NCBI GenBank assembly: GCA_011455275.1
Contig: CP015028.1
Coordinates: forward strand, 592,911-656,910
DNA length: 64,000 bases
Direction: 5' to 3'
Source: Pasteurellaceae bacterium Orientalotternb1
GTDB taxonomy: Bacteria > Pseudomonadota > Gammaproteobacteria > Enterobacterales > Pasteurellaceae
The notes beneath the pieces were generated by a model. The model did not search any database and had not been told where the DNA came from. It saw only the letters and a list, made by a program, of their open reading frames with translations. Both the position numbers and the translations under genes were made by a program. This document shows, piece after piece, positions 37,170-40,960 of the stretch (positions are counted from its first letter, which is position 1; each line of letters begins with the position of its first letter).

Positions 37170-38354
37170 ATGTCTAAAGAAAAATTTGAACGTACAAAAC
37201 CGCACGTAAACGTGGGTACAATCGGCCACGTTGACCACGGTAAAACAACTTTAACCGCCGCAATTACTACCGTATTAGCAAAACACTACGGTGGTTCTGC
37301 TCGTGCTTTCGACCAAATCGATAACGCACCAGAAGAAAAAGCACGTGGTATCACCATCAACACTTCACACGTTGAGTACGACACCCCAACCCGTCACTAC
37401 GCACACGTTGACTGCCCAGGACACGCAGACTATGTAAAAAACATGATCACAGGTGCGGCACAAATGGACGGTGCTATCTTAGTGGTTGCGGCTACAGACG
37501 GTCCAATGCCACAAACTCGTGAGCACATCCTTTTAGGTCGCCAAGTAGGTGTACCATACATCATCGTGTTCTTAAACAAATGCGATATGGTAGATGACGA
37601 AGAGTTATTAGAATTAGTTGAAATGGAAGTGCGTGAACTTCTATCTCAATATGACTTCCCAGGCGATGATACGCCAATCGTACGTGGTTCAGCGTTACAA
37701 GCGTTAAACGGCGTTGCAGAGTGGGAAGAAAAAATCCTTGAATTAGCAGGTCACTTAGACTCTTACATCCCAGAGCCAGAGCGTGCAATCGACAAACCAT
37801 TCCTTCTTCCAATCGAAGACGTATTCTCAATTTCTGGTCGTGGTACCGTAGTTACGGGTCGTGTTGAGCGTGGTATCATCCGCACTGGTGATGAAGTTGA
37901 AATCGTCGGTATCAAAGAAACTGCGAAAACCACGGTAACAGGTGTGGAAATGTTCCGTAAATTACTTGACGAAGGTCGTGCAGGTGAGAACGTTGGTGCA
38001 TTATTACGTGGTACTAAACGTGAAGAAATCGAGCGTGGTCAAGTATTAGCGAAACCAGGTTCAATCACCCCACACACTGACTTCGAATCAGAAGTGTACG
38101 TATTATCAAAAGAAGAAGGTGGTCGTCACACTCCATTCTTCAAAGGTTACCGTCCACAGTTCTACTTCCGTACAACTGACGTAACAGGAACTATCGAATT
38201 ACCAGAAGGTGTTGAGATGGTAATGCCTGGCGACAACATCAAAATGACAGTAAGCTTAATTCACCCAATCGCAATGGACGAAGGTCTTCGTTTTGCGATT
38301 CGTGAAGGTGGTCGTACAGTAGGTGCAGGCGTTGTAGCGAAAATCATCAAATAA
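37170..38354 (+). CDS. tufA: Elongation factor Tu, str-operon copy
   Basis: 394 aa, [28 protein letters not shown].... The 3' flank has a GNRA-loop terminator at 38390..38416. Confidence 0.97.
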
Positions 38355-38389
38355 TTAATCGCAGTTAATTACTTGAAAGCATAAAGAAA

Positions 38390-38416
38390 GGCGTATCGAA
38401 AGGTACGCCTTTTGGT
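38390..38416 (+). terminator. tufA rho-independent terminator (GGCGUAUC-GAAA-GGUACGCC + U-run)
   Basis: An 8-bp stem with a GNRA tetraloop, followed by ttttggttttg. The identical sequence recurs inverted at 39712..39740 after tufB. Confidence 0.6.
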
Positions 38417-38477
38417 TTTGGGCAGCCGCAAGCGGTCACTTTATGATAAAATTTTGCAAGTTGACATTTGCAAAATA

Positions 38478-39662
38478 TTACTGGGAACTGACCGCTTGTA
38501 GATTAAGCCTTTTTCTTGAATGAAGAAAGAATACCAATGCTACAGCACCACTTAAACAAGAAATCCCAAAGGCAAACAAAGAGAGTTTCTGAACCATAAA
38601 ATAGCCAATCAGGTACAACATTGGTAATGAAAAGAGAGAATCAAAAGCTGACATAATTGATTCAGATGTTGCTCTAGTTTCTTGCTTGATATTATCGTGG
38701 AAATTCGCACTGAAAAATATACTAAGTAACCCTACGCAAAAAACATGAGCCATAAGCAATAGCGATAGAATCCACATTGAGCTTGTAAATACTGGCATTA
38801 ATATCATTGCAGCGATGTTTATTAGCATCACCCTTACTCGCTGCTTTTCCGTAAATTTCATTACTCGAACAAATTTTCCTGCACTGAGCATTGCTATTTG
38901 TAACATTAAATACCCACATTCAATGCCATAAGGAAACTGTTTGAAAAGATGTTGCCAGAGTAAAAATGGTGCGAGTGCTGATGAAGCATAAAAGACACTC
39001 GCCCAGAAAAATGATTGACGGCTGAGCGTGGCAATCAGCGGCAAAATTGAATGAACTTGCAGCCTCTCTTTGCTTTCAAATAGATAATCTTTTCGATAAT
39101 AAAATAAGATCACTGCAGAGATGGTATAGGCAAGAGCGGAATAGATCCAAGGGTATTGGTTATTATGTTTGAACAAATAATAGGCACCCATTCCACCAAG
39201 AATAGCTCCAGCACTTCGATAGGTTACACTTAATGAAAAGAGTTTTTCGGTTGAACCTTTAAAGGAAGATTTCAACCCCACTAAAACGGCATTCGCTGCC
39301 CCTGAAATCAAAGAAAGTCCGATACCATAAGTGATCATTGAGCTTTCCAATCCATAAGAAAAGTTGGATAACAATAAGAGTCTTGAGCCGATAATTATCA
39401 GTAATCCTATTACAACCGCATTGATGGGCTTGATTTTATCTGTTAAAAAGCCCGTCGGGATTTCACAAATTAAGATGAACAAATTGAGCAGAATAAACAG
39501 AATGGAAATGGTCTGGAAATTCAATCCTTTATCTAAAAAGTACAAAACGTTCACCGCAGCATAAGCCCCATAGCCTATGGCGGAAAATAAAATGGTGTAG
39601 AGATAACGTTGGATCTGAATTGGCATAAAATTATTGCTTACTGTCTTTAAATAATTTTTCAT
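38478..39662 (-). CDS. Major-facilitator-superfamily-like permease, low-GC gene between the two tuf copies
   Basis: 394 aa, about 12 predicted TM segments, with an MFS-like loop motif (EIPTGFLTDKIKP). Codon usage is very AT-rich compared with its neighbours. The last 7 codons run through a USS. Confidence 0.6.
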   Translation of the reverse strand: MKNYLKTVSNNFMPIQIQRYLYTILFSAIGYGAYAAVNVLYFLDKGLNFQTISILFILLNLFILICEIPTGFLTDKIKPINAVVIGLLIIIGSRLLLLSNFSYGLESSMITYGIGLSLISGAANAVLVGLKSSFKGSTEKLFSLSVTYRSAGAILGGMGAYYLFKHNNQYPWIYSALAYTISAVILFYYRKDYLFESKERLQVHSILPLIATLSRQSFFWASVFYASSALAPFLLWQHLFKQFPYGIECGYLMLQIAMLSAGKFVRVMKFTEKQRVRVMLINIAAMILMPVFTSSMWILSLLLMAHVFCVGLLSIFFSANFHDNIKQETRATSESIMSAFDSLFSLPMLYLIGYFMVQKLSLFAFGISCLSGAVALVFFLHSRKRLNLQAVSSQ

Positions 39663-39775
39663 TTCTCAATTTGCAAAATTTTATCATAAAGTGACCGCTT
39701 GCTGTTGCCCAAAACAAAAAGGCGTACCTTTCGATACGCCTTTCTTTATGCTTTCAAGTAATTAACTGCGATTAA

Positions 39776-40960
39776 TTATTTGATGATTTTCGCTACAACG
39801 CCTGCACCTACTGTACGACCACCTTCACGAATCGCAAAACGAAGACCTTCGTCCATTGCGATTGGGTGAATTAAGCTTACTGTCATTTTGATGTTGTCGC
39901 CAGGCATTACCATCTCAACACCTTCTGGTAATTCGATAGTTCCTGTTACGTCAGTTGTACGGAAGTAGAACTGTGGACGGTAACCTTTGAAGAATGGAGT
40001 GTGACGACCACCTTCTTCTTTTGATAATACGTACACTTCTGATTCGAAGTCAGTGTGTGGGGTGATTGAACCTGGTTTCGCTAATACTTGACCACGCTCG
40101 ATTTCTTCACGTTTAGTACCACGTAATAATGCACCAACGTTCTCACCTGCACGACCTTCGTCAAGTAATTTACGGAACATTTCCACACCTGTTACCGTGG
40201 TTTTCGCAGTTTCTTTGATACCGACGATTTCAACTTCATCACCAGTGCGGATGATACCACGCTCAACACGACCCGTAACTACGGTACCACGACCAGAAAT
40301 TGAGAATACGTCTTCGATTGGAAGAAGGAATGGTTTGTCGATTGCACGCTCTGGCTCTGGGATGTAAGAGTCTAAGTGACCTGCTAATTCAAGGATTTTT
40401 TCTTCCCACTCTGCAACGCCGTTTAACGCTTGTAACGCTGAACCACGTACGATTGGCGTATCATCGCCTGGGAAGTCATATTGAGATAGAAGTTCACGCA
40501 CTTCCATTTCAACTAATTCTAATAACTCTTCGTCATCTACCATATCGCATTTGTTTAAGAATACGATGATGTATGGTACACCTACTTGGCGACCTAAAAG
40601 GATGTGCTCACGAGTTTGTGGCATTGGACCGTCTGTAGCCGCAACCACTAAGATAGCACCGTCCATTTGTGCCGCACCTGTGATCATGTTTTTTACATAG
40701 TCTGCGTGTCCTGGGCAGTCAACGTGTGCGTAGTGACGGGTTGGGGTATCGTACTCAACGTGTGAAGTGTTGATGGTGATACCACGTGCTTTTTCTTCTG
40801 GTGCGTTATCGATTTGGTCGAAAGCACGAGCAGAACCACCGTAGTGTTTTGCTAATACGGTAGTAATTGCGGCGGTTAAAGTTGTTTTACCGTGGTCAAC
40901 GTGGCCGATTGTACCCACGTTTACGTGCGGTTTTGTACGTTCAAATTTTTCTTTAGACAT
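39776..40960 (-). CDS. tufB: Elongation factor Tu, tRNA-operon copy
   Basis: Protein identical to tufA. The nucleotide sequence is near-identical from the ATG through about 110 bp past the stop (terminator + USS). Preceded by thrU-tyrU-glyT-thrT. Confidence 0.95.

Follow-up and report, generated by a model that had tools for sequence, protein, structure and literature searches.

In Salmonella enterica and Escherichia coli, the elongation factor EF-Tu is encoded twice, once in the str operon (tufA) and once in an operon with the genes for tRNA-Thr, -Tyr, -Gly and -Thr (tufB); the two copies are inverted with respect to each other, near-identical within a genome and divergent between species, and recombination between them leads either to conversion or to inversion (PMC5485169, PMC6735719, PMC8262849). 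Their homogenisation is well documented in Salmonella (PMC5485169, PMC8262849), where about 760 kb separate the copies, which sit on opposite replichores, both co-oriented with replication, and where an inversion flips a large, origin-containing segment at a cost in fitness; the genes co-evolve by recombination, with up to a quarter of the events yielding inversions (PMC8262849, PMC6735719). The same pair takes a different form in the stretch of DNA considered here, 64,000 nucleotides from Pasteurellaceae bacterium Orientalotternb1 (contig CP015028.1, positions 592,911 to 656,910; hereafter the window): here the two genes are convergent and only 1.4 kb apart, so that a single small gene, encoding a permease, would flip; one of the two operons must run head-on to replication, and the GC skew points to that of tufB; and the homogenised unit also takes in about 105 nt of 3' flank. 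The concerted evolution of tufA and tufB is said to have been treated by Abdulkarim and Hughes in 1996 and by Hughes in 2000.

A second likeness is to the large inverted repeats of plastids, which are 20-25 kb long, carry the rRNA operons and flank a small single-copy region, whose flip-flop isomers are equimolar. In both cases long identical arms, homogenised by recombination, enclose a short unique segment that can exist in two orientations, and short-read assemblies cannot fix the orientation of that segment; in plastids, however, the isomers are documented, whereas at the tuf locus they are a possibility suggested by the layout.

The convergent tuf pair of the window is, with good confidence, a genuine feature of the chromosome that has passed by vertical descent through the lineage of Orientalotternb1 and Frederiksenia canicola, with a resident permease gene between two arms that are kept alike by gene conversion. 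The arms (37169-38476 and 39654-40961; further coordinates in Table 1) are 1308 nt long each, 99% complementary, and separated by a spacer of 1177 nt, whose single open reading frame (ORF), on the minus strand, encodes a 394-residue protein of the major facilitator superfamily (MFS). Both EF-Tu paralogues occur in their expected contexts, one at the end of rpsL-rpsG-fusA and the other after the tRNA-Thr/Tyr/Gly/Thr genes, and their stop codons face each other across 1421 nt. Compared base by base, tufA and tufB differ in 2 of 1185 nt (37382 and 37568) and encode identical proteins; past the stop codon, about 105 nt are identical apart from positions 38414, 38425 and 38427, which brings the single-nucleotide polymorphisms (SNPs) that tell the arms apart to five. 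The similarity begins one base ahead of the ATG on the 5' side and fades beyond about 38464 on the 3' side. Antisense to the two genes run ORFs of 89 residues each, which differ by one residue, and an Rfam scan of the locus finds the four tRNAs and nothing else. In all these respects the original prediction, made from the letters of the window, describes the locus correctly: it had claimed convergent, near-identical 1.3-kb inverted repeats around one permease gene, tuf genes facing each other across 1.42 kb, antisense ORFs one residue apart, and an identity that extends from the ATG through the stop, a terminator with a GNRA loop (the loop is GAAA) and the first uptake signal sequence (USS) into about 110 bp of flank (105-110 nt, with three mismatches).

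The arrangement recurs in the complete genome of F. canicola HPA21 (CP015029.1), which was reached through the 90% cluster of the permease and not through the CoaA anchor described below: coaA (-), tufB (+), the permease gene (+), tufA (-), fusA, rpsG and rpsL (-) follow each other there, with a layout and a permease orientation identical to those of the window. An adjacency created by the assembler, through collapse or mis-joining of two distant tuf repeats, would be in keeping with the many draft genomes that break at tuf, which marks the repeat as error-prone. Two independently assembled complete genomes (Orientalotternb1 with 2.34 Mb, whose CoaA, FusA and TrmM are exactly those encoded in the window, and F. 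canicola) nevertheless agree, five SNPs distinguish the arms of the window, and permease-bearing unitigs from two sequencing runs (Logan; L081 and L086) run at both ends into the same repeat, inverted. These unitigs are 1255 nt long and have exact terminal inverted repeats of 30 nt, as expected at k = 31 when the same repeat, inverted, closes a segment on both sides (other unitigs in the protein cluster of the permease measure 1255-1321 nt); with both of their ends in the same repeat, fusA-tuf-permease-tuf-tRNA is the only possible path. The collapse of the two repeats, which the original prediction had named as a danger to its own reading, is excluded by the complete genomes and the unitigs from two runs, and an artefact of assembly now deserves hardly any credence.

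Within the family the arrangement appears to be confined to this lineage. A scan anchored on CoaA, in a collection with one genome per species, gave 80 Pasteurellaceae loci, most of the drafts among them ending at tuf; the set does not include F. canicola, whose CoaA is 98.4% identical to that of the window, and its best match is at 89% (S17M_Sa_43, a metagenome-assembled genome, MAG). Sixteen species, from the genera Actinobacillus, Mannheimia, Glaesserella, Nicoletella, Phocoenobacter, Rodentibacter, Aggregatibacter, Haemophilus and 'Macca', could be compared, each with the whole of tufB and 4 kb or more (mostly about 8 kb) of sequence beyond it. In none of these 16 other Pasteurellaceae species does the permease gene, a second tuf or fusA follow directly after tufB; the convergent juxtaposition, rightly called unusual from the start and common to F. 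canicola, is thus a derived state of the Frederiksenia/Orientalotternb1 lineage. Almost every genus has a different gene after tufB (for example a pyridoxal-kinase-like gene, a gene for a tripartite ATP-independent periplasmic (TRAP) transporter, hemC-hemD, dnaK-dnaJ or selB), and only few genera share a similar neighbour: as judged from these sequences, the region downstream of tufB is a rearrangement hot spot in Pasteurellaceae. In Pasteurellales this operon cluster is known to change at about 14 times the rate of other gammaproteobacterial orders, and the linkage of tufB to secE has been lost in them (PMC8046335, PMC6735719). As an origin of the juxtaposition, a single inversion of the ancestral tufB-secE-rpoBC-str cluster does not fit, the gene upstream of rpsL being hemH and not rpoC. 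The searchable literature yielded no description of a convergent tuf-permease-tuf arrangement.

The arms are more alike within each genome than their counterparts are between the genomes. In F. canicola they are identical over 1293 nt (tuf and 108 nt of flank), so that the coding differences within a genome number 0 in F. canicola and 2 in the window, and the differences in the flank 0-3; between the window and F. canicola, tuf shows 43-45 coding differences, and an ungapped comparison of the flank falls out of register five bases past the stop codon. Paralogues that resemble each other within a genome more than orthologues do between species are the signature of ongoing homogenisation, and the pattern is the one expected if recombination between the two tuf copies keeps them near-identical, that is, if they undergo gene conversion; by analogy with Salmonella, this conversion would depend on RecA and RecB. 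The identity of the arms ends at the same place in both species, namely where the extended USS consensus ACAAGCGGTCAGTTTnnnnnAAAATTTTGCAAAT stops. In Rodentibacter abscessus (NZ_AP038785.1), two tuf copies (8098-9282 and 20209-20916 of the extracted locus) occur as direct repeats on either side of coaA, at a distance of about 11 kb. They agree in every base of the final 705 nt of coding sequence (all that can be compared) and of about 54 nt of flank that take in the terminator; identity of the flank is thus not specific to the locus in the window, nor is it the footprint of an insertion event. On these comparisons, the homogenised unit in Pasteurellaceae is the tuf gene with its terminator, and in the Frederiksenia lineage it also comprises the adjacent USS, which may provide homology at the far end and so allow conversion tracts to extend over the flank. 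Each tuf gene, with its terminator and one extended USS, forms a repeat unit of 1.3 kb; the str operon, ending in tufA, and the tRNA-tufB operon meet tail to tail across one resident MFS gene.

The elements of the flank are common ones in the family. USS of the Apl type were reportedly described in Pasteurellaceae by Redfield and colleagues in 2006, and the window passes an enrichment test for this type (ACAAGCGGT(C)): its core AAGCGGTC occurs 40 times in the 64 kb, against 1.6 expected, at about one per 1.6 kb throughout; ACAAGCGGTC, the core with an AT-rich tail, is 25-fold enriched; and 26 of the 40 sites have the tail TTTGCAA of the extended consensus. The published USS density for these two Apl-USS species agrees with that of the window (bioRxiv 10.1101/2025.06.16.659825). 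Convergent pairs with a spacing of 46-85 nt are found at 13779/13838, 17733/17779, 29466/29551, 32722/32768 and 38430/38490, the last of these at the junction between tufA and the permease gene: an exact ACAAGCGGTC lies at 38490-38499, within the final codons of the permease (LQAVSSQ), opposite in orientation to the USS of the arm, just as had been proposed for its last seven codons, and as RNA the pair (38428-38499) folds into a long imperfect hairpin (-33.9 kcal/mol, z = -5.8). It thereby resembles the paired inverted Apl-type USS of other Pasteurellaceae, which form hairpins at gene ends (bioRxiv 10.1101/2025.06.16.659825); unlike in these, one USS has here joined the homogenised tuf repeat unit, the arms stopping where the extended consensus stops. 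With 40 cores in 64 kb and convergent pairs in several other intergenic regions, the USS-bounded slot, to which the original prediction had attached importance, is no special feature of this locus.

The tuf terminator, which precedes the USS in each arm, is intrinsic, and both folding and a terminator scan show it: a hairpin with the loop GAAA, preceded by an A-tract and followed by a U-tract, so that it could act in both directions. The hairpin (GGCGTATC-GAAA-GRTACGCC, followed by a T-run) is kept downstream of tufB across the genera of Pasteurellaceae (L009, L020, L023, L028, L035, L062, L065 and others), with compensatory changes in the stem (for example GGCGTGTC/GACACGCC and GGCATATC/GGTATGCC); the spacer ahead of it varies freely.

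A USS is also part of an unrelated repeat elsewhere in the window. It is followed there by a GC-rich hairpin (CCCCCGCAAGCGGGGG) in a sequence of about 90 nt that occurs twice in direct orientation (23722-23810 and 24779-24866, 96-97% identity), one copy after a malF-like gene (21984-23663) and the other after a malG-like ORF (24183-24716, 177 residues, BPD_transp_1); the two copies enclose about 1 kb immediately upstream of malQ.

The permease gene had been regarded in the original prediction as low-GC cargo, acquired by transformation or recombination. A recent arrival by natural transformation or recombination, into a slot between the tuf genes bounded by USS, would account for several of its properties: its family is tiny and patchy, its nearest relatives outside Pasteurellaceae are only 32% identical (in a Neisseriaceae MAG and in Moraxella nasicaprae), it is absent downstream of tufB in the 16 other species, it has a USS at either end, and its total GC, 0.370, is one of the lowest values in the window (-1.9 standard deviations (SD) from the mean of 49 window ORFs). 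The low GC, however, holds for the total only, and fits a hydrophobic membrane protein rich in Phe, Ile, Leu and Tyr; at third codon positions (GC3) the gene has 0.367, against 0.414 +/- 0.075 (-0.6 SD), and its codon bias against the pooled genes (B = 0.37) ranks 37th of 49, less deviant than that of coaA or trmM, which makes its codon usage host-like. Moreover, F. canicola carries the gene at the same position and in the same orientation, and the rate of synonymous substitution (dS) between the two species is 0.346, level with that of the neighbouring genes (hemH 0.424, fusA 0.364, coaA 0.376, trmM 0.345, rraA 0.358), at a ratio of non-synonymous to synonymous rates (dN/dS) of 0.13; the permease has thus diverged in step with the chromosome, under purifying selection. 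The USS at its ends reflect a density found everywhere in the window, and neither the window ORFs between 32 and 44 kb nor the Pfam-labelled locus of F. canicola include an integrase or transposase gene. A 75%-identical homologue on a metagenomic unitig (L082) is again preceded by a tuf gene on its own strand, and a 55%-identical one (L084, L089) lies at an unrelated locus, between an unrelated gene and a TRAP-transporter gene, yet likewise has USS on both sides. By these sequence comparisons a recent acquisition of the permease is refuted, and the idea of a cargo gene drawn into a USS-bounded slot has become very improbable; as the gene occupies the same site in F. canicola with a dS like that of its neighbours, any acquisition predates the split of the two species, and an ancient transfer into Pasteurellaceae may have taken place.

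The resident permease is annotated with different starts. The first ATG (39662) yields 394 residues, whereas the GenBank entry (QIM62356.1, 'hypothetical protein') begins at 39626, 36 nt inward, and has 382, which is why an exact lookup of the longer product finds no match; the RefSeq proteins of F. canicola have 390 residues, and the 75%-identical homologue starts at the equivalent of Met13. The first ATG lies at the boundary of the repeat itself, and not about 20 bp from it, as had been stated. The protein matches Pfam MFS_1 with 39.2 bits (cutoff 33.4; E = 5e-10), and its AlphaFold 2 model, built on 26 homologues, is all-helical and shows the canonical 12-helix MFS fold with high confidence (pLDDT 93.3, pTM 0.90). 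With Foldseek, 410 chains of the PDB match this model at E <= 0.001, and the top 50 are all MFS transporters, with TM-scores of 0.63-0.75; the best matches are NorA, at the top, and VMAT1/2, LmrP, MFSD10 and MdfA (TM-scores 0.66-0.75, identities 12-19%). A profile of the wider family likewise matches NorA (2e-17), and many relatives match the efflux models Tet(40), TetA(P) and HP1165. The loop between helices 2 and 3 contains GFLTDKIKP, which resembles motif A, and helix 5 reads SAGAILGGMG, in which the GG of motif C (G-x8-G-x3-G-P-x2-G-G) is present and the GP absent. In predicted fold, and with NorA first by both fold and wide profile, the permease thus resembles the 12-helix drug:H+ antiporters of the DHA1 type (NorA, LmrP, MdfA, Tet(40)/TetA(P)/HP1165); in contrast to these, the window permease itself reaches no NCBIfam model, and neither the single sequence nor the profile of its close family has a match in a PDB sequence search. 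It is probably a divergent, DHA1-like MFS transporter of the efflux type, as judged from the model, to which symporters score nearly as well in fold as efflux pumps do.

The family of the permease comprises five clusters among 5.8 billion proteins, and four cluster representatives below 1e-30 among 1.84 billion; a metagenome scan with its alignment gave no confirmed relative. Two further metagenomic homologues, 58-69% identical (L083, 97-1222, and L085, 112-1229), are each split into two ORFs and could be either pseudogenes or unitig errors.

The permease would accordingly be a functional host gene under purifying selection, which receives both its upstream and its downstream signals from the arms. 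The whole region upstream of its start codon lies inside the repeat arm, in agreement with the original prediction that it has no promoter region outside the repeat; within the arm there are weak promoter-like matches (TGGGCA-17-TATGAT and TGATAAAAT), and the Shine-Dalgarno context is poor at both candidate starts. Our best guess is that its expression depends either on tufB transcripts that read through the terminator or on a weak promoter inside the arm. At its 3' end, the signal would be the tufA terminator read antisense: the U-rich tail that this terminator has in the reverse direction, together with the hairpin of the USS pair, probably ends the permease transcript and limits antisense transcription from tufA.

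Over the 64 kb, each 8-kb segment has a positive GC skew, which suggests that the plus strand is the leading strand throughout. There is thus no terminus between the convergent operons, and the tRNA-tufB operon would run head-on to replication; a replication terminus between the two tuf genes, with both operons co-oriented, was considered and rejected for the same skew. In F. canicola the locus lies at 36% of the record CP015029.1, which is compatible with a head-on tufB if the position of the origin in the record is as assumed.

A crossover between inverted arms 1.18 kb apart would flip the permease segment, and as the arms are alike, the two isomers would be nearly equivalent. Given the layout, such flipping is plausible, and the claim of the original prediction that the segment is invertible by tuf-tuf recombination stands insofar as the structure of the arms permits it; what it has beyond this is one contig of an F. 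canicola draft (GCA_053654235.1, L087), on which rpsL, rpsG, fusA, tufA and the permease gene all lie on one strand, the permease being opposite in orientation to that in CP015029.1. This contig may be a true isomer or an artefact of the assembler, and is best treated as a lead. It would be the first glimpse of a flip-flop in which the segment inverts appreciably, both isomers occur in populations, the operon that supplies the read-through changes with them, and the arms are homogenised along the way. The arms seem well suited to it, with 1293-1308 nt at 99.6-100% identity over tuf and the first 105 nt or so of flank (99% over the 1308 nt), and inversions do accompany tuf-tuf recombination in Salmonella (PMC8262849). 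Several points, however, weigh against frequent flipping and against parts of the wider account given here: both complete genomes (window and CP015029.1) share one orientation of the permease, which does not speak for frequent neutral flipping; the draft contig passes through an arm of 1.3 kb that is duplicated without a mismatch and cannot be phased with short reads, both ends of the permease node join this repeat, and the contig stops 22 nt past the permease stop codon, exactly at the next arm, so that its orientation may be an arbitrary path of the assembler; the promoter-like matches in the locus are no more frequent than chance would give (9 in a scan of the locus, with 9.6 expected); and the nearest outgroup drafts, by which the age and origin of the juxtaposition might be judged, break at tuf.

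A programmed switch of the Hin or Fim type is unlikely, since no gene or domain of a site-specific recombinase is found in the locus or in the 21-kb F. canicola locus and since the repeats are 1.3-kb housekeeping genes. With identical arms, moreover, either isomer places the permease after one tuf terminator and USS and before the other terminator in reverse, so that little functional or regulatory change is expected from an inversion. Taken together, we hold appreciable flip-flop of the segment to be unlikely, although it keeps some claim to attention, and are more doubtful still of its stronger form, a natural RecA-driven flip-flop of tuf-permease-tuf that switches at measurable frequency in populations. 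Were this form true, repeated crossovers and conversions would explain the identity of the arms up to the end of the USS, and a DHA1-like pump would be tied to read-through from the most highly expressed operons of translation, its level tracking growth rate; the pump might even export a compound directed against EF-Tu.

Table 1. Features of the convergent tuf locus and its surroundings, in coordinates of the window.
Feature	Position	Strand	Remarks
rpsL	33933-34307	+	str operon, upstream of tufA; ORF; Pfam-labelled in the F. canicola locus (L088)
rpsG	34438-34908	+	str operon; ORF; Pfam-labelled in the F. canicola locus (L088)
fusA	35004-37106	+	str operon; product identical to QIM62354.1; Pfam-labelled in the F. 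canicola locus (L088)
tufA (EF-Tu, 394 aa)	37170-38354	+	final gene of the str operon (rpsL-rpsG-fusA-tufA); coding part of the left arm
tufA 3' flank within the repeat	38355-38464	+	terminator hairpin at about 38387-38412; extended Apl-type USS from 38428 to about 38461
Convergent USS pair	38428-38499	.	bridges the junction of the left arm and the permease 3' end
MFS transporter gene	38478-39662	-	394 aa from the first ATG; Pfam MFS_1
tufB 3' flank within the repeat	39666-39775	-	same terminator and extended USS; entire region upstream of the permease start codon
tufB (EF-Tu, 394 aa)	39776-40960	-	coding part of the right arm
tRNA-Thr(tgt), Tyr(gta), Gly(tcc), Thr(ggt)	41081-41468	-	head of the tufB operon; ARAGORN, Rfam
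Promoter-like site near the tRNA genes	41524-41497	-	TTGCAA-16-TATAAT, 10/12 matches
coaA (pantothenate kinase)	41715-42665	+	divergent from the tRNA-tufB operon; QIM62358.1; synteny anchor

The processes that underlie this locus are already known, and there is no sign of a new molecular mechanism; what is new is the layout, in which the familiar tufA/tufB system of concerted evolution has become adjacent and convergent. One practical consequence is that the orientation of the permease in short-read assemblies of the Frederiksenia/Orientalotternb1 clade is not to be trusted. Concerted evolution and repeat-mediated inversion in bacteria have their textbook example in the tuf genes, whose copies in model organisms lie hundreds of kilobases apart, where an inversion is costly. 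Here, the conversion tracts reach the shared terminator and USS, and one highly expressed operon is placed head-on to replication; the locus thus offers a natural test bed in which conversion and inversion are separated from their large-scale chromosomal effects.

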